64,000 nt of DNA from Anaerolineae bacterium (GCA_040772005.1 JAXGYZ010000002.1:101546-165545); one strand, 5' to 3'; positions 5,609 through 50,314 are shown, numbered from the stretch's first letter. A program made the numbers and translations. Notes: a model not told the origin generated them from the sequence alone.

Positions 5609-6754
5609 GTGAGTTCGGAGGCCCTCAATCTTCGGTCTGTGCGCTACATGCGTTATAATGGCCCCATGTCGATGCTTTCTCTTGCACCCAGGCTCCCCCT
5701 GTATTGGAGCTTTCGGCGCTTCGGTTGGCCGAAAATGTACCCCTTCTCCGTCGTCGTGAGCGTCAGCTTCCGCTGTAACTCCAAATGCCGCACCTGCGAT
5801 GTGTGGCGCAAGCCCAACGATGATATGTCAGTGGAGGAATGGGACAAGGTCTTTGCCAACCTGGGGCGCACGCCCTTCTATATCACTTTCACCGGCGGCG
5901 AGCCTTTCCTGCGTCGCGACCTGGACGAGATGGTCATCAGCGCGTACCGCCACTGCCGCCCGTCGGTCATCACGATTCCCACGAACGGCCTGTTGACCGA
6001 CCGCGTGGTCGAGCGCGTGCGGCGCATCTGCCGGGAATGCCCGGACAGCCAGATTGGTCTCAACCTGAGCCTCGACGGCATCGGGGAAGAACATGACGAC
6101 ATTCGCGGCGTGCCGGGCAACTGGGAACGCTCGATGGCGACGTGGAATGCGCTGAAGGAGCTGCAGAAAACGCAGCGCAATCTGATCCTGACCGTCCACA
6201 CGGTCGTCAGCCGGTTCAATCAGCACCGCTTTCAGGAAATTTATCACAACTTGCAGTTTCTTCAGCCGGACAGCTACATCACCGAAGTGGCCGAAGAGCG
6301 CGTGGAGCTGGATACCATCGGCTGGGGCATCACGCCGGAGCCGGATGCCTATGCACCCATTGCCGATTTCCTGAGCGCGCAGGCGCGAGCCCAGCCGGCC
6401 AAAGGGCTGGCGCGCATCACGCAGGCGTTCCGCGCGCAGTATTACCAGCTAGCCAAGCGGGTGCTCTACGAACGCACCCAGGTCATTGACTGTTATGCGG
6501 GCTGGGCCAGCGCACACATTGCGCCCAACGGCGACATCTGGAGCTGTTGCATCCGCGCCGAGCCGGTCGGCAGCCTGCGCGAGACGGGCTACGACCTCGC
6601 GCCCATCTGGTTCGGGGAACGCATGGCTGCGCTGCGCAAGTCCATCTACGACAAGGAATGTGCCTGCCCCATGGCGAACGCCAGCTATGCCAACATGCTG
6701 CTGCATCCGCCGACCGTGGCGAAGGTCGGGCTGGAAGTGTTGAAGCGGGATTGA
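5609..6754 (+). CDS. radical SAM enzyme with a C-terminal Cys-rich (SPASM/twitch-like) region
   Basis: CNSKCRTC = CX3CX2C radical-SAM cluster motif, a glycine-rich SAM site (FTGGEPFL) and C-terminal CC...CxC cysteines. The true start may be an internal ATG (5648 or 5666). Confidence 0.6.
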
Positions 6755-39720: not shown

Positions 39721-40212
39721 TTAAGCGGTTCGATTAGGCGGCAGGTTGTAACGCTGCCGGAATAAATCCATCGGTGACGGCCGCGCCGCGTGCATTCCCT
39801 GGTCGCGGATATATTCCGGCCCGGCCAGCGCCTTGACCACGTCGCGCAGATTCAGGACTGAGGCAGGCCACATCTTGCCGCCCGCGTGGTGCATGAAGAA
39901 AAGGTGGTCGACGCCGAGATCGGCCATCAACTGCACGGTCGCAGCCAGCGGAATGTCTGCCGGCGCTTCCGGGATGTCCTCGTCCATGACATCCGCGGCG
40001 ACCAGCTCGCCGGCCCGGTCGCCCGTAGTATAAACCAGCGCCAGCATCCGCTCGTTGAGCCACCCGCGCGCGTCGCCGTCCTCATCCATCACGACGGTCG
40101 CGGTCCAGCCCTGCTCGACCATCTGCCGGGCAAGTTGAATGACTTTGTCATCCGACTTGCACGTGGGCACGCCGATGCGCATCACGTCGCGGACGAGAAG
40201 CGGTTCAGTCAT
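39721..40212 (-). CDS. CBS-domain pair protein
   Basis: Start ATG 40212 (MTEPLLVRDVMRIGVPT). Two CBS repeats (VRDVM ... and LVAADVM ...). Confidence 0.6.
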   Translation of the reverse strand: MTEPLLVRDVMRIGVPTCKSDDKVIQLARQMVEQGWTATVVMDEDGDARGWLNERMLALVYTTGDRAGELVAADVMDEDIPEAPADIPLAATVQLMADLGVDHLFFMHHAGGKMWPASVLNLRDVVKALAGPEYIRDQGMHAARPSPMDLFRQRYNLPPNRTA

Positions 40213-40576
40213 CGCCTTCGCTCTCGGCGTTGTACTCGGCCTGCTCCTCTGCCACGGCCAGCGCATCCGCCTCCACAGCAGACGGTGCGGCCGGGTGGAT
40301 CGCGAGGCGCAGGCCCAGGCTCCGCAGCAGCGCGGTCAGGCTGGAGAGCTGAGGGTTGCCGTTGGGCGACAACATGCGATACAGGTTCTCACGATTGAGC
40401 TGGGCCTCGCGTGCCAGTTGGCTCACACCCCGGGCTTCGGCCACGTCGCGCAATGCTAACAGGAAGACCTCCTGGTCTCCGTCCTCCAGTGCTGCATTGA
40501 GATAACCGAGAGCATACTCTGGATCGGCAAGCCGCTTCAGCAACCCGCTCTTGTATTCAACCGCCGGCTCTCTCAT
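40205..40576 (-). CDS. addiction-module antidote protein (HigA-like HTH, TIGR02684 type)
   Basis: REPAVEYKSGLLKRLADPEYALGYLNAALEDGD ... LALRDVAEARGVSQLAREAQLNRENLYRML is the characteristic antidote HTH. The start ATG overlaps the upstream killer-gene stop (TGATG). Confidence 0.6.
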   Translation of the reverse strand: MREPAVEYKSGLLKRLADPEYALGYLNAALEDGDQEVFLLALRDVAEARGVSQLAREAQLNRENLYRMLSPNGNPQLSSLTALLRSLGLRLAIHPAAPSAVEADALAVAEEQAEYNAESEGDD

Positions 40577-40577
40577 C

Positions 40578-41035
40578 ACAGTCCTCCGCAGAAGTCCGCC
40601 CAGTAAAGCTGCGCCAGCTCGATATCATCCCTTTGTGAGTCTTTGTCGCCGCCACAGAGCAGTACAACAACTCGATCACCATGTCGGGCGAAGTAGATGC
40701 GGTAGCCGGGGGGCGCGTTTCATACTGGGGGCGAATTCGTAGCGCACTTACGCTGCGGCGTGGGCACGGACAATATCCCGCCCTCGCATCACCGAGATTC
40801 GTGGCCGCAGACGCATTCGTTTATCCGCGCTGCCAACGTGACATCGATGCGATAGGCGGGCCTCTAGTCGATCCTCAGTTCACTGACTCCTCCTAATAAT
40901 CGCAGTCACTGAACGTGCAAGTCTGGCGCGAATCCGCACAGCAGCTTCCATATCCCGTAGTTTGGCAACCCATTGCCTGAACGGGTTCCTACCTTCTTCA
41001 GTTGAATAATCAACAATGATGATGGTTTCTGCCAC
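40578..41035 (-). pseudogene. disrupted addiction-module killer (RelE/HigB-like) gene: frameshifted and with an internal insertion
   Basis: N-terminal fragment (GTG 41035: ...IVDYSTEEGRNPFRQWVAKLRDMEAAVRIRARLARS) in one frame; GVSELRID in a second frame ending in TAG; about 150 nt of unrelated GC-rich sequence; then the C-terminal fragment (PPGYRIYFARHGDRVVVLLCGGDKDSQRDDIELAQLYWADF) in a third frame ending at the coupled TGATG. The N-terminal part is AT-rich, unlike the host. Confidence 0.45.
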
Positions 41036-41148: not shown

Positions 41149-43437
41149 TTAGAACATCGGCTCCATCATCAGCGACGGGTGGCCGGTCGCTTCGAGGTGC
41201 GCGAGCAGGCCGTCCACGTCGGTGCAGATGGTCTCATCGGCAATCTTGCTCAACAGGTCGGGGTCGCCCTCGCGCTCGCACACGGCCTGGAGTTCCGCGG
41301 CCATCGTCTGCTTGAGCACGCTGGACATCCACACGACGCGGCTGAAGCCGCCGTCTGCGGAGATGAACTTCGGGCTGGTCAGGTAGTACTTGCCGACGCC
41401 CATTACGCCTGGCGTCTGCAACCCGCCGCCGGCCATGCCGGCCAGGGTCGAAAACGTCATGCCCGCGGGCGTCATGCTCGTGTCCTCGCGGGAGACGACC
41501 ATCACGCCGTTCGCCTCCGGGATGAGCATGACGATGCACTCGAAGCAGCCGCACGCAGTCATGGGTGCGTTCATGATCGAGTACATCGCGACTTCCTGCA
41601 CCGTGCCGTTCGACTTCTGCTGTGCGATTTCGTTCAGGCCCGCGTAGATACCCTTCTCGCGGTCGATCATCATGCCCTTACGGATGGGCTGATTCGGGCC
41701 GGTCGGGTTAATCTGGTAGGAGGCCGCGCAGTCCAGGTAGTTGTATGCGCCGCACAGGCCGAGACGCTGCGGGCTGACCAGGCACAGGTGGGTCGGCGCA
41801 AACGACTGGCAGAGCGTGCAGGTGTAGAACTCCTCCACTGACTCGTCGGTCATATCCGCGAGGCGGTTGTTGCGATAATCGTAGGCATCACGGGCCTTTT
41901 GCAGCCATGTGGCGTGCAGCGTCGGGTCCGTGATGATTTTGACCTGCACCTTGTCCACGATAGCGCCGAAGTCGGCCATCAGGCGGGCATGCACGATGTC
42001 ACCGAAGTGCTTGAGCGAGAACCCCTTGTCCGCCGCGGCCTTGCTGATGCGAATCCAGGTGATATCGCGCTGGCCGATGTGCTGGATGCCGCTCGCGCCG
42101 TTGACGAAGTAGTGAATCTGGCGTTCGAGCACCGGCTCGAAGTCCCGCTGCATCTTGCGGCCCGCAACCTCGACCAGGATGCCCATGTCCATCGAGCCTG
42201 CTTCCGGCACGTCTGCGAAGTCCGGCCCGATGACCTCAATCTTGCCGTCCTCCACCTGGTCCATGTCGACCATGCGCAGATATTCGAAGGCCCGGCTGTA
42301 CTTGCCGCCGAATTCGACGCGCATGTCCTTCTTGCGGACGACCTCACCCTCGAACGCGGAGCCGTAGGGCACCGGGATCGGGACCTCGGTCAGCTTGATC
42401 TTGACGCCGCGCGTCTCGATGCACTTCTGGACCAGCTTCTCTGCGCGTTCCAGGTCATCCTTGCCTTCGATTTCGTTGAAGGGCATGGAGATGACGTGCT
42501 CATAGGTCGTCACGCCGGTGGGCAGGATCTGGGGGATGCGCGTGTCTGCGATGACCGGAAAGCCGTAGTTGATGGCGCCCGCGGCTGCCGCGTACTTCAG
42601 GTCGTCGACCTCGCCCAGCGCCAGCACAAACGCAAAGACGCGCTGCCGGTTGTATTGCAGGATGTCCTTCGCCTGCCCGCCCTTCATGCCGCCGAAGGTC
42701 AGCGCGGAACGGGTCGCGAACCCGATGGGATAGATGGCGGAGAGTGTGTCCAGGCCAAACGGCACGATGTAGGTGTCGTAGCCCATCTCCACGCCCTCTT
42801 CCTGCAACTGGTGGATGACCGAGCGGCCGTTGACGTTGCCGCAGAGGAAGATCAGGATGTTGCGTTTCTGCAGCTCACGCACGATCTTGACCGCGACCTC
42901 GTTGCTCTTGGCGCAGCCGACAATCGCGGCGAAGCCGGGCATACGCCCGTCGACCAACTGGATGCCCCAGGCGCGGAGCTGAACGTCGTCGATCGGACCG
43001 TTCAACCGTCCGTTGCCGTCAGAGCCGCCGGAGGTCCCGCCATCCGGGCTGGTGAAGCTGCCGCCGGTCCCGTGGAAGCCTTCCAGGCGACCCGGTTCCT
43101 CGCCATAGACGAAGCGGATGGCCTCGATGATCTCCGCGGCCAGCAGCGTGGACATGCCGGAGTCCAGCGTCTCGCCGAGGTAGGGTGTCCAGCACTGGAC
43201 CGTCGGGACGGGATGCAGCAACTCCTTTGCATGCTCCAGCACCGGCGTCAGCTCGCCCAGCTTGGTGATCTCGCGACCGGTCATGCCGAAGATGGTCGGC
43301 AGGTAGTAAGCAGTATTGGGGAAGGCGACAGGGCAGTCAGCGCCCTTCTCCTGCAAGGCTTTGCTGAGGAGCTCGTCGGCCTCTTGCACAATCAGGTTGG
43401 CGCCGCGGATGGCGCGAGTAGCGATGTATCGCGACAT
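41149..43437 (-). CDS. acsB: acetyl-CoA synthase catalytic subunit AcsB (CODH/ACS beta; A-cluster)
   Basis: 762 aa with near-diagnostic ACS segments: AFPNTAYYLPTI, IEVIGPDF, FYTCTLCQSFAPTHLCLVSPQRLGLCGA, MTACGCFECIVMLIPEANGVMVV (A-cluster Cys-Gly-Cys), MTFSTLAGMAGGGLQTPG. Confidence 0.85.
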   Translation of the reverse strand: MSRYIATRAIRGANLIVQEADELLSKALQEKGADCPVAFPNTAYYLPTIFGMTGREITKLGELTPVLEHAKELLHPVPTVQCWTPYLGETLDSGMSTLLAAEIIEAIRFVYGEEPGRLEGFHGTGGSFTSPDGGTSGGSDGNGRLNGPIDDVQLRAWGIQLVDGRMPGFAAIVGCAKSNEVAVKIVRELQKRNILIFLCGNVNGRSVIHQLQEEGVEMGYDTYIVPFGLDTLSAIYPIGFATRSALTFGGMKGGQAKDILQYNRQRVFAFVLALGEVDDLKYAAAAGAINYGFPVIADTRIPQILPTGVTTYEHVISMPFNEIEGKDDLERAEKLVQKCIETRGVKIKLTEVPIPVPYGSAFEGEVVRKKDMRVEFGGKYSRAFEYLRMVDMDQVEDGKIEVIGPDFADVPEAGSMDMGILVEVAGRKMQRDFEPVLERQIHYFVNGASGIQHIGQRDITWIRISKAAADKGFSLKHFGDIVHARLMADFGAIVDKVQVKIITDPTLHATWLQKARDAYDYRNNRLADMTDESVEEFYTCTLCQSFAPTHLCLVSPQRLGLCGAYNYLDCAASYQINPTGPNQPIRKGMMIDREKGIYAGLNEIAQQKSNGTVQEVAMYSIMNAPMTACGCFECIVMLIPEANGVMVVSREDTSMTPAGMTFSTLAGMAGGGLQTPGVMGVGKYYLTSPKFISADGGFSRVVWMSSVLKQTMAAELQAVCEREGDPDLLSKIADETICTDVDGLLAHLEATGHPSLMMEPMF

Positions 43438-43463: not shown

Positions 43464-43550
43464 AGAGACGAGTAACGAGTAACGAGTAAGGAGAAATGAG
43501 TAAGCGTCACTTCTTACTCGTTACTCATTACTCGTTACTGATTTCTCATC
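43464..43550. repeat. long palindrome of tandem GAGTAAC heptamers between acsB and cooS
   Basis: gagagacgagtaacgagtaacgagtaaggagaaatgagtaag, loop cgtcac, then ttcttactcgttactcattactcgttactgatttctcatc. The right arm reaches the cooS stop codon. Confidence 0.6.
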
Positions 43551-45540
43551 ACCCGTAAATCTCTGCCATCTGCTCTTCGACCGGCAGTTCGCTGTATGAC
43601 TCCATCGCCGCATCCCCGGATGCGCCAAAGCGGGCCGGATCGTAGGCAGGCAGCTTCAGCGCCGCGCGCTTCTTGTCGATGTGCTCGAGTGTCTTCTGGA
43701 CGATGTCTCCGGCCTCGATAACGAACTCCAGCTTGCCGCCGTAGCGGTCTTCCCACTCACTTAACAGGATGTCGGAAACCGCATCGGAGAACTCAACCGG
43801 GTTGCGCACGCCCATGATGACGTACGCGCCAGAGCCGACACAGTAAGTGGCGATGGATAAAGCTTTCTCGCTCATCCATTCGGGTGCCAGGCCGACCGCC
43901 GGGATATCGCTGATGTCGTCGCCCAGGCCGCCCTCGGTCGCCATCTGGCTCAACACAGTGAGGATGCGGCTGTTATCCACGCAGGAACCGAGGTGCAGGA
44001 CCGGCGGGATGCCGATCGCTTCGCAGACCTCGCGCAGGCCGGGGCCGACCTTTTCCGGATCGAGGCCCGCAGAGCCCTTCATATAGCCATACTTGCCGGC
44101 TGCAATCGCGCCGCACCCCGTGCTCACCACCAGAACATCATTCTTCAGCAGTTCGGTGACCACATCCATGTGGACCTGGTCGTGGGTGAAGGCGGGGTTG
44201 TTGCAACCGACATTCGCCGCCACGCCGCGGATGCGCCCGCTGGCGATGGCGTCGTTGAGCGGCCGGAAGGAGGCCCGATAGTTGCCGCCCTGCATGTAGG
44301 CCAGATACTCATGGCTGAAGCCCGGCACCATTTGTTCGGACATGCCATGGGGGATGTGCGTCTCGGCGGCCCGGTTGGCATAGTTGTCGATTGCGCGGCG
44401 CACGATATTCTTGGCGATGTCCATCGCGTGATGCTCGTCGAACTCGATGTGTGTGGCGCCGGTAATCTTGACTTTGGGGCTGGTGGTGATGATTTCGGTG
44501 TGGAAGTGCTCGGCAACGCCCACCAGGGATTGCATGATGCACTGCACATCCACCACCATTGCCTCGACCGCGCCGGTCAGGATGGCGAGTTCCTGCGTCA
44601 GGAAGTTGCCGGCGGAAGGAATGCCCTGGCGCATCATGACCTCATTGGCCGTGCAGCAGATGCCCGCCAGGTTGATGCCGTCCGCGCCCTTGCTCTTGGC
44701 ATACTCGATCAGATCGGGGTCCTGAACGGCCGTGACGATCATCTCAGAGAGCGTGGGTTCGTGGCCGTGGACGATGATGTTGACCTGCTTCTCTTCCAGG
44801 CAGCCGAGATTGACTCCGCCAACCTTCGGGCTGGGGGTGCCGAAGAGGATGTCGGAGATGTCGGTGGCCCACATCGAGCCGCCCCAGCCGTCGGATAGGG
44901 CCGTGCGCACAGCGGCGCTCAAGATGTGGCTGGCATCCTGGTCGTCGCCAATGTGCGTGCGATGCAAGATCTCCACCACTTCGCGGTCGATGCCCCGCGG
45001 CACCACACCCTGGTCGCGCCAGAGCTTCTGGCGCTTGGGCGGTGCGGTATTGATGTAACTGAGCGTCCCGCGCTGTTGCCCGAATTCGCTGATGGCTTTG
45101 TTGGCCACGTCCAGCGCGACCTCTATGACAGTCTTGCCTTTCGTGGGGATGCCATGTTTGGCCGCGACGGCATACAGCTTGGCCTCATCGCGAATCTGGT
45201 AACCCTGGGCCTCGCCGGTCGCCACTGCATGGAGGGTAAACGCCAGGTCACGGCCATGGTCGGAGTGAGCCGCCGCGCCAGCCGCAATCGCCCGCGCCAG
45301 ATTGCGGGCCGCGATGGTTTCCAGCGTCGCACCGCAGATGCCGACTTGCCCTTCTTTGGTGATGCGGCAGGGCCCCATATAGCAATTTTTGCAGCAGACG
45401 CCCGATTGCCCGCTGCCCACGGTGCAGGGCTTATGGTCTGCCGCCCGGCTAAATGAGGTCGAGATGCCCATCAGTTCGGCAACGTCCAGCACGTAGCATG
45501 CGGCTGGATCGATGCTGGGCGTGATTTTCTGTTTTGCCAT
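43549..45540 (-). CDS. cooS: anaerobic carbon-monoxide dehydrogenase catalytic subunit CooS/AcsA (Ni-Fe C-cluster)
   Basis: Start ATG 45540 with GAGGAG ribosome-binding site (MAKQKITPSIDPA). D/B-cluster N-terminal cysteines (CTVGSGQSGVCCKNCYMGPCRI), C-cluster ligands (HGHEP; GICCTANE; GCNNP; HLGSCVDN); 663 aa. Confidence 0.8.
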   Translation of the reverse strand: MAKQKITPSIDPAACYVLDVAELMGISTSFSRAADHKPCTVGSGQSGVCCKNCYMGPCRITKEGQVGICGATLETIAARNLARAIAAGAAAHSDHGRDLAFTLHAVATGEAQGYQIRDEAKLYAVAAKHGIPTKGKTVIEVALDVANKAISEFGQQRGTLSYINTAPPKRQKLWRDQGVVPRGIDREVVEILHRTHIGDDQDASHILSAAVRTALSDGWGGSMWATDISDILFGTPSPKVGGVNLGCLEEKQVNIIVHGHEPTLSEMIVTAVQDPDLIEYAKSKGADGINLAGICCTANEVMMRQGIPSAGNFLTQELAILTGAVEAMVVDVQCIMQSLVGVAEHFHTEIITTSPKVKITGATHIEFDEHHAMDIAKNIVRRAIDNYANRAAETHIPHGMSEQMVPGFSHEYLAYMQGGNYRASFRPLNDAIASGRIRGVAANVGCNNPAFTHDQVHMDVVTELLKNDVLVVSTGCGAIAAGKYGYMKGSAGLDPEKVGPGLREVCEAIGIPPVLHLGSCVDNSRILTVLSQMATEGGLGDDISDIPAVGLAPEWMSEKALSIATYCVGSGAYVIMGVRNPVEFSDAVSDILLSEWEDRYGGKLEFVIEAGDIVQKTLEHIDKKRAALKLPAYDPARFGASGDAAMESYSELPVEEQMAEIYG

Positions 45541-45554
45541 GAGATGTATCTCCT

Positions 45555-45881
45555 CTACTTCTTGGCATCCCGCAGGTCGGTGCGGGTCTGGCGTAGGCCG
45601 AGGCGATCCCATGCGGGATCTTTGCGGCCATCCTGTACGGGAACGGGTTGCGTCATGACGCTCGCGCCGTCGGTGGCAACGGGGTAGCCGGCCTCATCCA
45701 GCATGGCCATAATGGCGCCCGGCGTGACCAGCGCCGGGTCGTAAGATACGATGACCATGCGGAAGGCGGAGCTGGCAAGAACATCCTGCACACCGGTCAA
45801 CTGCGACAGGGCTTCCCGCACCTTCAGCGTGTGATGATCGGCCCAGAGATTGGGCACGCCGAACTGGATTTTCTCCATGGG
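45555..45881 (-). CDS. conserved hypothetical small protein co-operonic with cooS
   Basis: 108-aa ORF with a GAAGGAGG ribosome-binding site 10 nt upstream of ATG 45881; it ends 14 nt before the cooS start. No recognisable motif. Confidence 0.4.
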   Translation of the reverse strand, partial: PMEKIQFGVPNLWADHHTLKVREALSQLTGVQDVLASSAFRMVIVSYDPALVTPGAIMAMLDEAGYPVATDGASVMTQPVPVQDGRKDPAWDRLGLRQTRTDLRDAKK

Positions 45882-45899
45882 TGGCTGACCTCCTTCAAG

Positions 45900-46184
45900 G
45901 GGGCTGTTCAAAGGCTTTTTCGGCTCCAGGCGGGGACCTGCTGTGGCGTTGGCTTTTTCAGCGTAGAGCAGGTCCGCGATTTCGCGCCGGTGTTCGATAT
46001 AGATTTCGCAGAAGTCGCAGGTGACAGAGAGGGGTGCGCAGCAACAGGAACTCCCCGCGCATTCTTCCCAGCAGGTTTGTGTTCCCGCATAGATGGCGCA
46101 ATCGGCGCACGCCACCACCCAGCCGTTCTTGCCGGATGCGTGCCTGGCCTGAAGTTCACGCCGGATTTCCCAACATCTGCGCAT
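45900..46184 (-). CDS. cysteine-rich small protein (11 Cys; possible metal or Fe-S binding) leading the cooS operon
   Basis: ACADCAIYAGTQTCWEECAGSSCCCAPLSVTCDFCEIY; weak ribosome-binding site. First gene after the leader and terminator downstream of the ANTAR regulator. Confidence 0.4.
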
Positions 46185-46270
46185 GTCTGTCTCACCACCT
46201 GCGGATGGCTCTCGCCGCCGTGCGTATAAGCTGATATCGTGTAGTTTTGCACGATGTGGTCGGTTTGGCT

Positions 46271-46284
46271 ATGACGTTCGTCAT
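46271..46284. promoter_or_regulatory. ATGACgttcGTCAT palindrome in the cooS-operon leader (putative operator; extended form ggctATGACgttcGTCATagcc)
   Basis: Perfect ATGAC-N4-GTCAT with the same half-sites and spacing as 1467-1480 and 46417-46430. Confidence 0.35.
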
Positions 46285-46288
46285 AGCC

Positions 46289-46326
46289 AAACACAAAAGC
46301 CTGCCCCGCGCAGAAGCGGAGCAGGC
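46289..46326 (-). terminator. intrinsic terminator (or ANTAR-controlled attenuator) in the leader between the ANTAR regulator gene and the cooS operon
   Basis: On the minus-strand RNA: GCCUGCUCCGC-uucugc-GCGGGGCAGGC followed by UUUUGUGUUU. Confidence 0.45.
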
Positions 46327-46416
46327 TTTCATCACCTGGGAAGGTTGCAAACCATCGTCAGTCTGCAAGATATGACACAATGGTCAATAGCTTACGTTAC
46401 ACTTATCGCGCGCAAT

Positions 46417-46430
46417 ATGACGCGCGTCAT
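46417..46430. promoter_or_regulatory. ATGACgcgcGTCAT palindrome in the cooS-operon leader (putative operator)
   Basis: Third perfect ATGAC-N4-GTCAT site, 146 bp from the second. Confidence 0.35.
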
Positions 46431-46480
46431 GTACGAATTAGAAGGTATTTTCACAAAACGCCCTGGCATGGAGCGCAGGC

Positions 46481-47059
46481 CTACAGGAGTTGGTCTGCTG
46501 TCACCAGGGCCTGGGCGACCTCGGAGAGCCTGCGGTTAGTGTCCTGGCTCTGCTTCTGCAGCCGGCGAAAGGCTTCCTCTTCAGTCAGGTCCAGGCGCCG
46601 CATGAGGATGCCCTTGGCGCGCTCGATTAGCTTGCGGGCTTCAAGGGCCTCGCGCAGGTCTGCCACTTCCTGGTGCAGCGCCTTGAATTCGCGGAAGCGC
46701 GCCAGCGCAAGGGCAATCGCAGGCAGCAGGTCTTCCTCGGCCACCGGCTTCATCAGATAGGCGGAGATATTGGCCTGGGCCGCGCGCTCGACCAACTGGG
46801 TTTCGTTGTATGCGGTCAGGAGGATGATCGGGATGGGCCGCGTGCGGGTGATGCGCTCGGCCGCCTCGATGCCGTCCATGACCGGCATCTTGATGTCCAT
46901 GATGGCCAGGTCCGGTTCGGTGGCTGCGGCGAGCGTGACCGCATCCGCTCCGGTGGAGGCTTCGGCCACGACGTGATGTCCCAGCGCGTTGAGCTGCACC
47001 CGCAAGCTTAGCAGGCGGATGCTCTCATCGTCGGCAATGAGGATGCGCAGCGGGTCCAC
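46481..47059 (-). CDS. response regulator with ANTAR RNA-binding output domain (AmiR/NasT-type antiterminator)
   Basis: REC domain (ILIADDE ... D54-equivalent in AIMDIKMP ... K) followed by an ANTAR helix bundle (LEARKLIERAKGILMRRLDLTEEEAFRRLQKQSQDTNRRL). Confidence 0.75.
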   Translation of the reverse strand: MDPLRILIADDESIRLLSLRVQLNALGHHVVAEASTGADAVTLAAATEPDLAIMDIKMPVMDGIEAAERITRTRPIPIILLTAYNETQLVERAAQANISAYLMKPVAEEDLLPAIALALARFREFKALHQEVADLREALEARKLIERAKGILMRRLDLTEEEAFRRLQKQSQDTNRRLSEVAQALVTADQLL

Positions 47060-47068
47060 GACACCTCG

Positions 47069-48250
47069 TTATTTATAGAATATCAGTTGCGCCTCGCTGC
47101 CGCCCTGCGGCAGATTGTGCAGGCGCAGCGTGCCGGCGAGATCCTTCTCGGCGAGGGTGCGGGCGATGCGCAGACCCAGCCCGCGTGCGCGTTCGATGTC
47201 GAAGTCAGGCGGCAGCCCGCGACCGTTGTCGCGCACCACCACCGTGACCTGGGGACCTTCCTGCGCGAGGTCGATGCGCAACTGCCCGCCGCGCGCGCTG
47301 AGGCTGAACGCGTGCTCCAGCGCGTTGGCAATCAGCTCATTCATCACCAGTGCAAAGGCCGTGGCCTGCTTCGAAGGCAGATAAATCGCCTCGCCGGTCA
47401 CTTCGGCCTGCACCGGGCGGTCGGGGCGCACCAGGTGACGCAGCGAGATATCGCATACTTGCCGCGCCAGTTCGGTGATATCGGTCAGCCGCACCTGGTC
47501 CGCGGACAGCAGTTCGTGGACGGCCGCGATGCTCTTGATGCGCGTCACGCTGTCGCGCAGGCTGCGTCGCGCGGCTGGGCTGGGGCTGGAGGACATCTCC
47601 AGGCTGAGCAGGTCTGCGACCGTTTGCAGGTTGTTCTTGATGCGGTGGTGCATCTCCTGCACCAGCGTCGCCAGGGCTTCGGCGCGCCGCGCTTCCTCCC
47701 GCAGCCGCATGTTGTCGACCGCCGTGCCAATCTGTGTGGCAATCGAGCGGAGGAGGGCCATGTCGGTATCGGAGAAGGTGACGAGCCGCCGCGCTGCAAT
47801 GTGCAAGACGCCGAGGGGCTGCTCTTTGGCGTGCAGCGGGACGACCGCGCACGCGTGCGCGCCATGACACCGGCAGCCCTCGCGCACGATGCGCGCATCG
47901 TTGACGACGTCGGCTGCCTGCAGTTCTTCCCCGCGCAGCAGCGCCTGGCCGCACAGGCACTCACCGGGCGTGATCGTCGTTTCGGCAGGGTCGAACAGGG
48001 AGAGGTCGCCTTCGGCTGCGGCCAGGGCAAGCTGGCCGGTCAGACGATCCAACAGGTAGATTTTGCCGCTGTCGAGGGCCAGGACGGCGAGGGTTTCTTG
48101 CAGCGCCTCAGAGAGCGCGGCTTGTTCGTTCAGCGCCCGGTTCATCGCCGCGGAGACAGCATAGAGCGCGGCCAACTCCTGCACGCGCCGCTGTTCTTCG
48201 GGAGCTTGCCATGATAGGGACACGGGCTGTGGGGAGGCAGGAGGATCCAT
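47069..48250 (-). CDS. GAF-domain sensor histidine kinase (HisKA_2/HWE-like H-box HHRIKNNLQ)
   Basis: Two GAF-like regions, an H-box VQEMHHRIKNNLQTV and a C-terminal HATPase_c (VVVRDNGRGLP ... GLGLRIARTLA). Confidence 0.65.
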   Translation of the reverse strand: MDPPASPQPVSLSWQAPEEQRRVQELAALYAVSAAMNRALNEQAALSEALQETLAVLALDSGKIYLLDRLTGQLALAAAEGDLSLFDPAETTITPGECLCGQALLRGEELQAADVVNDARIVREGCRCHGAHACAVVPLHAKEQPLGVLHIAARRLVTFSDTDMALLRSIATQIGTAVDNMRLREEARRAEALATLVQEMHHRIKNNLQTVADLLSLEMSSSPSPAARRSLRDSVTRIKSIAAVHELLSADQVRLTDITELARQVCDISLRHLVRPDRPVQAEVTGEAIYLPSKQATAFALVMNELIANALEHAFSLSARGGQLRIDLAQEGPQVTVVVRDNGRGLPPDFDIERARGLGLRIARTLAEKDLAGTLRLHNLPQGGSEAQLIFYK

Positions 48251-48346: not shown

Positions 48347-48535
48347 TCAGGAGACTTTTTCGTCCGTGGGCTTGTCCGCCGGCTTTTCGGGCGCCGTTTC
48401 GTCCCTGGACGCCTGGCGGAATTCACGGATGCTCTTACCGATCGCGCCGCCGATTTCCGGCAGCCGGCCCACGCCGAACACGATGAGCACAATGACCAGG
48501 AGGATGACCCACTCCCAACCACCTAGGTTGAACAT
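48347..48535 (-). CDS. tatA: twin-arginine translocase subunit TatA/E
   Basis: 62-aa ORF with an N-terminal TM helix and the TatA hinge motif (GGWEWVILLVIVLIVFG ... GRLPEIGGAIGKSIREFRQA). Confidence 0.7.
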   Translation of the reverse strand: MFNLGGWEWVILLVIVLIVFGVGRLPEIGGAIGKSIREFRQASRDETAPEKPADKPTDEKVS

Positions 48536-48584: not shown

Positions 48585-50213
48585 TCATGAATTGTCAGAT
48601 TCAGGCGCCGGCGCACGTCGTGCGCGCCGGGCACGTTTCGGTAACGTTCGTTTGCCATGCGCCGCCCGGCTGGCGAACAACATCTGCCGCGCCAGCGCCA
48701 GATCGAGCCCGGTGCCGATCAGGCGCCGCAGAAAGATGGATTCCTCCGCGGGCTGCGTCTGTACATCGTGGGCCGCAGCCTGGGCCACTGCTGCTGCCTC
48801 AACATCTCCCGCCAGGAGCAGCCAGCGCGCCATCTTCTGCAGGCTCTTAGCATACCTTGCTTTTAGCTCGGGGCCAAACTGCGTGCGCGCGATATTGGTG
48901 ATCCGCTCCGCGCGCGCCGCCGGCCCGTCAATCTGGCCGGGAGACAGCTCGGCCAGGGACCAGGGCCAGGTCGCGAAGGCCGGATGGTCCAGCAGCCCGG
49001 CGATAGCGGCGTGATCCGGCGCCGGCTCGATCTCCGATACACCGGTGTCTGTCGCGTCGAGGTCGGCTCCCCGTGGCAGCGGTTCAGCCAGCCAGATGAG
49101 CGGGTTGAACAGGCGGTATTCGACCGGCGGCAGCGTGCCCTGGGCCCAGTGTAGCGCCAGGGCCTCCCGGATGAGCTGACGCCCCACCGGCAATGCGACT
49201 TCGAGCAACAGTAGGTTGCCGTCCGCCAGCTTGACACGGTGCAGGGTCCCGCTGTCCGCGGCGGGCGGGATTTCGAGCAAGTCCGTATGCTGCCCCGGCG
49301 CAACGAAGCCCAGTCCGCTCGTCGCATCGGTAACGACCGAGAGAGATACCCCCGGCGCAGCATCTGCGGCCTGGCCGACGAACCAGACGAGCTGCGTGCC
49401 CGCGGCTTCGACCGGCGACACCAGCACCCGCCAGGTGTGACCCGGCGCGTGCCACGGTGCAGGGTCAGGCTCCGGCTCGGCGCGGCCCGTCCCGATGCTC
49501 ATCTGTACTTTGCGCCGCCCCCGCTCGGCCAGGACGGCAAGCAGCGGCGGCAGGGTGGCGGCCAGGCTGGTCAAGGCCTGGGCAGCCGCCACCGACCGGA
49601 TGCGGCTCAACTGGTCCAGTGCGCCGCGCGCCAGTGCGGGATCGTGCTCCTGGGCGAACATGCGGAGGAGGGCGATCATCTGCCAGCCGTTGCCGCTGCC
49701 GGGGATGGCCTTGAGCAGGAGGTGCGGCACATCGGGCGGCTGCTGGGCAAGCTGGGCCAGGTATTCCAGAAGCGCGACCGGCTCCTGCTGCATGGCCCGC
49801 ATGAGTTCCTGCAATGACTGATGGGCCACCTGATCCGGGTCGCCCGCGCCGGCCGCGACCAGGTCATCGACCGGCTCAGCGAGAAAGCGATCGAGGAGGA
49901 TGACGGCGCTGATGCGCACCCGATCGACATCCGTGTGGGGCCGCGCCCCTGCACCGCCGGCCGCGCCGCGCAGCGCGGCCACCAGTTGTTCACGGGGCAG
50001 GTGCAAAGCCACCAGGCCCAGCCGGCCGCGCACGAGCGGATCATCAGTGTCCAGCAGGGACAGGAGAAACGTCAGTGCCGTGTGCCCGTGTGCCGCAATC
50101 GTGGCTGCCTGCTGTTCCTGCTCGGCCGGGTCTGTCATCGCCAGCAGGCGTGCAAATTCGGCTTCCAGCGTCCGGCGCTCCATCAGCCCGGTGAGCACTT
50201 TCGATTCCGCAGT
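48585..50213 (-). CDS. hypothetical Ala/Leu-rich protein (possible HEAT/ARM-like scaffold)
   Basis: Roughly 540-aa ORF with host-like codon usage and no recognisable catalytic motif. Start uncertain (ATG 50213, MTAESKVL). Confidence 0.35.
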   Translation of the reverse strand, partial: TAESKVLTGLMERRTLEAEFARLLAMTDPAEQEQQAATIAAHGHTALTFLLSLLDTDDPLVRGRLGLVALHLPREQLVAALRGAAGGAGARPHTDVDRVRISAVILLDRFLAEPVDDLVAAGAGDPDQVAHQSLQELMRAMQQEPVALLEYLAQLAQQPPDVPHLLLKAIPGSGNGWQMIALLRMFAQEHDPALARGALDQLSRIRSVAAAQALTSLAATLPPLLAVLAERGRRKVQMSIGTGRAEPEPDPAPWHAPGHTWRVLVSPVEAAGTQLVWFVGQAADAAPGVSLSVVTDATSGLGFVAPGQHTDLLEIPPAADSGTLHRVKLADGNLLLLEVALPVGRQLIREALALHWAQGTLPPVEYRLFNPLIWLAEPLPRGADLDATDTGVSEIEPAPDHAAIAGLLDHPAFATWPWSLAELSPGQIDGPAARAERITNIARTQFGPELKARYAKSLQKMARWLLLAGDVEAAAVAQAAAHDVQTQPAEESIFLRRLIGTGLDLALARQMLFASRAAHGKRTLPKRARRARRAPAPESDNS

Positions 50214-50314
50214 CATAAACCCCATTATATCACACGGCACGCATTTGTCACACTGGCCGCGACCGGCGTATACTGTTCATGCACGCACATTGCTGACACA
50301 TCGAGAGGTTCACC

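Follow-up and report, generated by a model that had tools for sequence, protein, structure and literature searches.

The 64,000-nucleotide stretch of Anaerolineae DNA analysed here (GCA_040772005.1 JAXGYZ010000002.1:101546-165545; hereafter the window, with positions counted from its first letter) carries a two-component gene pair, a GAF-domain sensor kinase and an ANTAR-domain response regulator, upstream of an operon for the Ni-CO dehydrogenase/acetyl-CoA synthase (Ni-CODH/ACS) of the Wood-Ljungdahl pathway. Comparison with related loci strongly supports the presence, in the 296-nt gap between the regulator gene and the first operon gene, of a conserved attenuator consisting of a GC-rich hairpin and a U-tract, and supports equally well the promoter architecture in which it is embedded. 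We mildly favour the ANTAR regulator encoded next to the leader as the operator of this attenuator. The elements concerned are, in order of transcription:

47069-48250, minus strand: sensor histidine kinase gene, 393 aa, GAF, HisKA_2 and HATPase_c domains (Pfam)
46481-47059, minus strand: response regulator gene, 192 aa, GTG start, Response_reg (REC) and ANTAR domains, PdtaR type (Pfam)
46452-46479, minus strand: weak hairpin and UUUUGUG just past the regulator stop codon (sequence, fold)
46417-46430, no strand assigned: palindrome 1, ATGACGCGCGTCAT, core TGAC-N4-GTCA (alignment)
46389-46394, minus strand: -10 box TAAGCT of the upstream promoter, in most relatives TGGCATACT, with no -35 box (alignment)
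46346-46367, minus strand: hairpin P1, UGCAGACU-GACGAU-GGUUUGCA (fold, covariation)
46339-46345, minus strand: linker ACCUUCC, 7 nt, 7-10 nt in relatives (alignments)
46322-46338, minus strand: hairpin P2, CAGGU-GAUGAAA-GCCUG, -5.6 kcal/mol (fold)
46289-46326, minus strand: intrinsic terminator, whole element, with an 11-bp GC-rich stem, 6-nt loop and U-tract
46326-46316, minus strand: terminator 5' arm, GCCUGCUCCGC (fold)
46315-46310, minus strand: terminator loop, 6 nt (fold)
46309-46299, minus strand: terminator 3' arm, GCGGGGCAGGC (fold)
46298-46289, minus strand: terminator U-tract, UUUUGUGUUU (sequence)
46271-46284, no strand assigned: palindrome 2, ATGACGAACGTCAT, extended as TTTGGCTATGACGAACGTCATAGCCAAA at 46291-46264 (alignment)
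46243-46251, minus strand: extended -10 box TGCAAAACT of a second promoter, beyond the terminator (alignment)
46199-46191, minus strand: Shine-Dalgarno sequence GGUGGUGAG of the first operon gene, a 209-aa open reading frame (ORF)

A preliminary description of this DNA had placed the kinase and regulator genes at these positions, co-directional with the cooS-acsB operon, and had reported a 300-bp leader with a GC-rich hairpin and tract at 46289-46326 on the transcribed strand; Pfam annotation (all genes on the minus strand), the measured gap and the conservation and covariation of the hairpin bear this out. The order of two-component pair and CODH/ACS operon is likewise correct, except that the first operon gene is the 209-aa Cys-rich/HMA-like ORF and not cooS. 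Absence of a dual hairpin upstream of the terminator, on which the proposal of ANTAR control made in that description would have foundered, is not what we find: P1 and P2 are both present.

The element at 46289-46326 has the features of an intrinsic terminator: a U-tract directly after a GC-rich stem-loop, both carried on the strand that is transcribed, with a promoter upstream. Its relatives were collected as two separate sets of loci (labelled L###), one retrieved in a metagenome scan with a pattern from the conserved leader block, which yielded at least 120 stretches, and the other retrieved through proteins. At least 49 pattern-retrieved loci passed a filter requiring a paired P1 and a T-tract, and every filtered locus with enough downstream DNA has a Cys-rich gene, cooS and acsB after the motif. 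The same attenuator occurs in the protein-retrieved loci L001, L003, L005-7, L210 and L214, with a diverged version in L010. L001, L003 and L005-7, reached through regulator relatives (80-95% identical) in Anaerolineae metagenome-assembled genomes (MAGs), share the order HEAT-repeat gene, TatA, kinase, regulator, gap, small ORF, CooS and AcsB. The aligned gaps show a conserved block made up of P1 (GCAGRCU-GAYGNN-GGYYUGC), a linker of 7-10 nt, and CAGGU-GRYGANN-GCCUG leading into the GC-rich stem-loop and U-tract.

Covariation, counted over 48 distinct sequences (the window and 47 others), is marked in the terminator, where 98.7% of cells in the outer 8 bp are paired and double-sided changes occur at four of the eight pairs. 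None of 500 shuffles matches the observed value on any of five measures, and slid controls drop to 41-50% paired. The leader is also more stable than shuffled sequences (z = -4.9 for 316 nt and z = -6.2 for a 79-nt core). This core, spanning P1 to the U-tract, has a folding energy of -41.7 kcal/mol in the terminator state versus -5.6 kcal/mol for P2 alone, so termination is the default and read-through needs something that holds P2. Searches against Rfam with the whole window (gathering threshold) and with 45900-46700 (E up to 10) returned only noise, for example cold-seep-1, which scored 21.5 bits where the gathering score is 125.8.

P1 comprises 7-8 bp and a hexaloop of the form G-A-Y-G-N-N on a U.G closing pair, with G4 at 46356. 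Its helix (9-14/21-26) is paired in 98.3% of cells of the 48 sequences, with A-U to G-C double changes at two pairs, and its covariation exceeds that of shuffles and slid controls. P2 comprises 5 bp and a 7-nt loop, G-R-Y-G-A-N-N, with G4 at 46330; in most relatives the loop reads GGUGAAC, which leaves 5 nt if G1 pairs with C7. The 3' arm of P2 (46326-46322) constitutes the first five bases of the terminator 5' arm, and the two structures are mutually exclusive, also in L010. The 5' arm and loop of P2 are invariant in the window, L001, L003, L005, L210 and L214, all of which were retrieved independently of the pattern, while L010 (GAGGU-GAUGAGC-GCCUU) shows a pair-preserving C-G to G.U double change; P2 was fixed by the search pattern in the pattern-retrieved loci, and L010 is the only one among the compared loci in which it varies. 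G4 of both loops is invariant in these six sequences and L010, and pattern-fixed in the other loci. Although termination does not involve the P2 5' arm and loop, these are essentially invariant, and this invariance, combined with a G-R-Y-G core common to both loops, is the signature of a sequence-specific and probably dimeric binder.

A covariance model of P1 and P2 (R1), built from 44 leaders, matches the window element at 57.6 bits, its only strong match in the window, and also matches L210 and L214, but in L010 it matches the P2 half only. Neither the rest of the 64-kb window nor a set of 80 PdtaR-type loci of other phyla gave a credible match to R1, which was rejected as a regulon-defining model on account of being too clade-specific.

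Upstream of P1, 44 leaders contain the sequence TGAY-N4-RTCA (commonly AACATGACCTGCGTCATTG), and in these the end of the 12-bp core lies 23 nt from the -10 hexamer. The hexamers are CATACT, GATACT, TAAGCT or CATATT, usually with TGn in front and with no -35 box, and the centre of the palindrome falls at -41.5 relative to the inferred start, which for the window is near 46382. An inverted repeat centred at -41.5 is the geometry of class II activation by CRP/FNR-type proteins, and the promoter has this layout in its inverted repeat near -41.5, its missing -35 box and its fixed -10 spacing. Five loci without the repeat (L109, L116, L121, L140 and L197) have TTGACA-N18-TATGAT/TAAGAT in the same place, and the L010 promoter is a perfect TTGACA-17-TATATT. 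Because a -35 box replaces the palindrome where the palindrome is absent, the promoter can be placed between the regulator gene and P1, which makes the terminator an attenuator in the 5' leader of the CODH operon and not the end of the regulator transcript. The weak hairpin at 46452-46479 is a possible terminator of the two-component operon, and is not kept in L003 or L005.

Palindrome 2 has the same core as palindrome 1 and the same 23-nt spacing to the second -10 box, and relatives carry TGGCAAACT or TGCAAAAAT there. The hexamers at +23 are AAAACT, AAAAAT or CAAACT, with TGn in front in 10 of 11 cases, and the region resembles a duplicate of the promoter module, placed past the terminator. 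Only one subclade has it (window, L001, L003, L005, L107, L132, L142, L143, L160, L173, L179 and L195); in most relatives no more than ~15-25 nt separate the U-tract from AAGGUG and a GTG start codon. The second -10 box is bracketed by an inverted repeat, ATCGTG (46255-46250) and CACGAT (46241-46236), N8 apart, which covaries in L003. The two palindromes, previously listed with the hairpin among the features of the leader, are thus present and conserved, but as DNA operator or activator sites rather than RNA elements. We rejected them as RNA hairpins since half-site sequence is kept even where C.A mismatches break the RNA pairing (L001, L005), and the -41.5 geometry is fixed. Judged by sequence, they mark two activator-dependent promoters. 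A tblastn search with an E. coli CRP query found no CRP-like gene in the window or in related CODH loci.

We propose that the CODH/ACS operon is regulated through the 296-nt gap, at both initiation and elongation. At initiation, a dimeric DNA-binding activator on TGAY-N4-RTCA at -41.5 would drive the promoter that lacks a -35 box, with the window subclade having a second copy of this module past the terminator. During elongation, some 15-20 nt of transcript from the upstream promoter would be followed by P1 and then, by default, by the strong terminator before the first gene, and read-through would require a factor holding the weak P2, whose 3' arm doubles as the terminator 5' arm. The likeliest such factor would be the PdtaR-type ANTAR regulator encoded directly upstream, which in phosphorylated, dimeric form would read G4 of both G-R-Y-G loops, and the signal of its kinase may be a thiol or redox state perceived through the Cys-rich GAF domain. 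A more elaborate version of this model, which we offer tentatively as the less probable case, would have the oxygen-sensitive CODH/ACS operon gated by a redox- or thiol-responsive PdtaS/PdtaR-type system whose kinase senses through a GAF domain descended from free methionine-R-sulfoxide reductase. A non-canonical G1/G4 ANTAR element (a hexaloop and a heptaloop) in series with an FNR-like activator-dependent promoter would then make a two-signal AND gate for the Wood-Ljungdahl pathway.

By the published definition, an ANTAR target has two hairpins of at least 3 bp, set 5-12 nt apart, with A1 and G4 in their hexaloops, and the second of them overlaps the terminator (PMC3369931). In the crystal structure of EutV with RNA, a flipped G4 is the sole base-specific contact, and the minimal motif has been redefined as a single hexaloop (PMC8934654). 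Surveys in actinobacteria found A1 and G4 conserved in just over 50% of predicted targets (PMC8164766). The leader described here has two tandem stem-loops of sufficient length (7-8 bp in P1 and 5 bp in P2), a hexaloop in P1 (GACGAU), G4 in both loops (G46356 in P1 and G46330 in P2), and a second hairpin that excludes an intrinsic terminator, with the terminator state far more stable. The 7-nt linker of the window, like the 7-10 nt linkers of its relatives, falls within the 5-12 nt range of the eut leaders, and later ANTAR surveys have used a range of 2-25 nt.

The regulator has features expected of an operator of this kind. Its nearest solved relatives are Rv1626/PdtaR (1S8N, E 1.5e-46) and EutV (6WSH, E 1e-36), and as in PdtaR-type proteins a REC domain with a phospho-accepting Asp is joined to a C-terminal ANTAR domain; the regulator sequence 'DLAIMDIKMP' aligns with 'DLVIMDVKMP' of Rv1626, which holds the phosphorylated D65. 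The residues through which EutV contacts G4 (R142/E160/Y164) correspond to R/E/F in the window regulator. An exact-sequence look-up returned no identical sequence on record for this protein, and many Anaerolineae proteins are 80-95% identical to it.

The kinase is of PdtaS type in its GAF_2, HisKA_2 and HATPase_c domains; the window kinase has no PAS domain, unlike the kinases of the L010 and L214 lineages. Its GAF domain finds its best solved match in fRMsr (3MMH, E 3e-4), and the next best are Ta0848 and YebR. Within GAF residues ~95-135, 'CLCG' of the kinase aligns with 'GVCG' and 'EGC' with 'IAC' of 3MMH, and Cys is thereby kept opposite the VCG and 'HIAC' motifs of free methionine-R-sulfoxide reductases. 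Four GAF cysteines are conserved in kinases of the clade, including that of L008 which has no adjacent CODH, and are absent from aligned kinases of Gaiellaceae (L022) and Verrucomicrobia (L036). JGI names for relatives of the kinase are 'putative methionine-R-sulfoxide reductase with GAF domain' or PdtaS. The kinase may sense thiol, redox state or methionine sulfoxide, and a thiol or redox signal is a reasonable guess because the GAF domain resembles a methionine-sulfoxide reductase with conserved Cys and the pathway is oxygen-sensitive.

Regulator and leader are frequently found together. Of the 39 pattern-retrieved loci that are informative (those with at least ~1 kb of upstream DNA), ~22 have the regulator ahead of the leader, as do seven protein-sampled lineages, including L214, in which a PIN/PhdYeFM insertion lies between them; in several loci only inserted toxin-antitoxin or HNH genes part the two. 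Regulator and leader are also kept in L010, with a regulator of 74% identity, a kinase that bears an additional PAS domain N-terminal to GAF, and a leader that is diverged but homologous. The L010 operon begins with a Cys-rich-AlaDH/PNT fusion, formate-tetrahydrofolate ligase (fhs), DUF166 and an HMA-like ORF, followed by CooS.

Several observations weigh against the ANTAR regulator as operator. Position 1 is G and not A in both loops of all sequences, and the P2 loop has 7 nt instead of 6, so that the dual-hexaloop motif which the preliminary description proposed to look for is matched in topology (two stem-loops, the second sharing its 3' arm with the terminator 5' arm) but not in A1 or in a P2 hexaloop. 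A generic G1/G4 dual-hairpin descriptor proved unspecific and was discarded, giving 14 window matches versus 6.1 +/- 2.6 in shuffles. Some 17 of the 39 informative leaders have no regulator in ~1-7 kb upstream and, when sampled through the regulator or kinase proteins, about half of the lineages have no CODH operon or attenuator beside the two-component locus. No attenuator follows the regulator in the CODH-less loci examined (e.g. L208 and L212). Genes found after the two-component locus elsewhere encode a class I fumarase (L208/L209, L211), a pyridoxal-phosphate enzyme (L212), a MalT-like protein (P0170 contig) or moeA (L213), the regulator of this locus being ~82% identical. By these comparisons the attenuator tracks the CODH operon and not the regulator, and adjacency is frequent but not obligatory. 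The promoter evidence adds that the operon has, as far as sequence can tell, its own activator-type promoter and is not fed from the regulator transcript. A second promoter would moreover bypass the terminator, and attenuation may be partly dispensable in the window subclade.

The two-component locus is itself broadly conserved, with the order recR-ybaB-dnaX, HEAT-repeat gene, TatA, kinase and regulator across lineages, and has a CODH neighbour in about half of them, so adjacency alone is only moderate evidence. The mycobacterial targets of PdtaR are not its neighbours (bioRxiv 10.1101/660928), and partial adjacency is by analogy compatible with a multi-target regulator. ANTAR antitermination of the CODH/ACS operon, as first suggested for this locus, is thus upheld in its layout, its G4 bases and the contact residues of the regulator, and not in A1, the size of the P2 loop or an obligatory adjacency.

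The attenuator might be real and have another operator, either another RNA-binding protein or a small ligand acting on a compact riboswitch of a new type, with the kinase and regulator forming a housekeeping locus that is adjacent through ancestral synteny. We consider this the chief rival reading, possible if somewhat unlikely. It would account for the unrelated neighbours of the two-component locus in L208/L209, L211, L212, L213 and P0170, with no attenuator where examined, for leaders without a nearby regulator, for loops without a canonical A1 and a P2 without a hexaloop, and for a regulator that is 80-95% identical whether or not CODH adjoins. However, two apical G-R-Y-G loops on simple hairpins typify a dimeric protein site and not a ligand pocket, and Rfam offers no riboswitch or other RNA family match. 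The adjacency of regulator and leader has also survived the change of operon in L010 as well as insertions of mobile genes, and Pfam annotation of the cluster reveals no further RNA-binding regulator encoded in the operon.

Control essentially at initiation, through the palindromes and an FNR/CRP-like activator, would reduce the hairpins to a constitutive or leaky terminator that shields the operon from transcription entering from the regulator gene, with no signal-dependent antitermination. The strong conservation of the palindromes at -41.5 with extended -10 boxes agrees with such control, as does the second promoter after the terminator in the window subclade, which is what would be expected of a mere insulator. 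We nonetheless regard it as improbable: in most relatives the sole promoter lies before the terminator, with the ribosome-binding site and start codon ~15-25 nt after it, and an unregulated strong terminator would silence the operon. Furthermore, the P2 5' arm and loop are invariant though useless for termination, and P1 has been kept by compensatory changes. Finally, that the hairpin and U-tract merely end the kinase/regulator operon, the rest of the gap being plain spacer, is suggested by their position ~155 nt past the regulator stop codon on the same strand, but is ruled out for practical purposes by the conserved promoter between that stop codon and P1, by the occurrence of the element before CODH with no regulator in 2.5-7 kb upstream (L096, L154, L179, L180, L190, L197), and by its being missing after the regulator where CODH is absent.

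With the ANTAR regulator as the favoured operator, the closest parallels are the EutW/EutV system and the eutP/eutG/eutS/eutA leaders of E. faecalis (PMC3369931, PMC8934654), with which the present system shares a kinase and REC-ANTAR pair, two short hairpins (the eut linker is 5-12 nt) of which the second overlaps the terminator 5' arm, loop G4, and a regulator that keeps the G4-contacting residues. It differs from the eut leaders in having G1 instead of A1 and a P2 loop of 7 nt, in a Ni-CODH/ACS Wood-Ljungdahl target where eut comprises ethanolamine or nitrogen genes, in a single attenuator per operon combined with an activator-dependent promoter, in the Cys-rich GAF sensor of the kinase, and in being known from sequence alone. 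PdtaS/PdtaR of M. tuberculosis (Rv3220c/Rv1626), which supplies the closest solved relative of the regulator, likewise has a cytoplasmic GAF HisKA_2 kinase, and databases label the Anaerolineae proteins PdtaS and PdtaR. This system has been linked to redox physiology (bioRxiv 10.1101/660928). In contrast to the terminator-overlapping attenuator next to the regulator described here, the mycobacterial targets of PdtaR mainly involve translational repression at ribosome-binding sites; in addition the window kinase lacks the PAS domain of PdtaS, which is present in the L010 lineage. NasR/nasF and AmiR/amiE resemble the present system in that a hairpin whose loop is of the A1/G4 type precedes an intrinsic terminator, the protein blocking termination there, but NasR and AmiR have no REC domain, are not part of two-component systems, sense their signal directly or through a partner, and serve nitrogen or amide metabolism.

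CO-responsive control of operons containing cooS is exerted in other bacteria by CooA and RcoM, dimeric activators acting at palindromic or repeat sites close to the promoter, of which CooA belongs to the CRP/FNR family. The CooA site, TGTCA-N6-CGACA, is unlike the TGAY-N4-RTCA found here and, in contrast to CooA systems, no CRP-family gene was matched in the window or related CODH loci. We know of no leader attenuator in the coo operons controlled by CooA or RcoM. To our knowledge, little has been established about the regulation of bifunctional CODH/ACS in bacteria, and the known cases concern DNA-binding factors of monofunctional CODH or general redox repressors.

No paper in the literature searched links ANTAR proteins to Ni-CODH/ACS, the sole co-mention being aerobic Mo-CODH genes in a NasT microarray. 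By type the leader is an ANTAR-style attenuator; what is new is its target, a Ni-CODH/ACS Wood-Ljungdahl operon, its phylum (Chloroflexota, Anaerolineae), its loop variant (G1, with a hexaloop and a heptaloop) and the FNR-like class II promoter to which it is coupled. A compact attenuator of 47 nt plus terminator, with a neighbouring candidate operator and a candidate redox-type sensor, provides a testable model of post-initiation control of carbon fixation. Anaerolineae are abundant in digesters and sediments. With this leader nature also offers a test of whether ANTAR proteins need no base other than G4 for recognition, as the structure of EutV with RNA suggests; the AND-gate proposal, if true, would widen the accepted rule to G4 alone. 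The coordinates given here for promoter and attenuator can be used directly in annotating these operons or expressing them elsewhere.

The surrounding genes are as follows:

48585-50240, minus strand: HEAT-repeat gene, upstream of the kinase/regulator pair (Pfam)
48347-48535, minus strand: TatA gene, upstream of the kinase/regulator pair (Pfam)
45555-46184, minus strand: operon gene 1, the 209-aa ORF, with a Cys-rich N-terminal and an HMA-like C-terminal domain (Pfam)
43549-45612, minus strand: CooS/AcsA Ni-CO dehydrogenase, 687 aa (Pfam Prismane, E 5.9e-160)
41149-43437, minus strand: AcsB acetyl-CoA synthase, 762 aa (Pfam)
past acsB to ~25717, minus strand: co-directional Wood-Ljungdahl cluster (Pfam)

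The operon cluster behind the attenuator thus extends over 25717-46184 (minus strand), ~20 kb of Wood-Ljungdahl genes. AcsB is followed by a CBS protein, an NAD-binding protein, AcsD, AcsC, two flavoprotein/Fe-S subunits and RACo, and then by a GNAT acetyltransferase, CooC, an ADH-like protein, a HEAT-repeat protein, AcsE and FolD. By annotation this is a near-complete set for the carbonyl branch and methyl transfer (CooS, AcsB, AcsD, AcsC, RACo, CooC, AcsE and FolD). Formate-tetrahydrofolate ligase is not among the ORFs annotated in the window cluster, and in L010 lies between the leader and cooS. An antidote gene of the HI1420-downstream type is situated between acsB and the CBS gene (40205-40579, minus strand).

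The first operon gene has 11 Cys within residues 4-58, including the motifs CWEIR...CDFCEIY, in an N-terminal module of ~60-100 aa (MRRCWEIR...CADC...CWEEC...CCCAP...CDFCEIY) for which Pfam gave no match; the HMA-like C-terminal half is a weak Pfam match. Some gene callers shorten the ORF to 107-109 aa, but we regard the 209-aa version as real because it aligns over its full length in relatives and has 42 homologous protein clusters of ~210 aa (JGI name CopZ). The Cys-rich module always stands immediately 3' of the attenuator. Its partner is the HMA-like domain in the window and an AlaDH/PNT-like enzyme in L010 (6783-8193), where the HMA-like domain forms a separate 111-aa gene.

A few further features were noted in the related loci. 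PIN/PhdYeFM, HNH-like and DUF5615-like genes occur between the regulator and the CODH promoter in L092, L157, L207 and L214; like the antidote gene of the window, they are small insertions of addiction-module or mobile type. In L008 (Anaerolineales, regulator 78% identical) the regulator is followed by a separate promoter and a DUF3800-III RNA (RF02962, 107 bits; 5656-5763, plus strand) in place of the CODH leader. Short intergenic runs of repeats of the form GACGAAGGACGAA, often followed by the inverse, are present at 6580-6720 of L009 and also downstream of the terminator in L100, L116, L121, L140, L153, L156 and L207, and may be REP-like elements. The cooS gene is called as two to three ORFs in several MAGs (L005-L007, 9533-11523; L210, 7761-8795; L214, 11001-12987), and the position of the split is identical in the three separate assemblies L005-L007.

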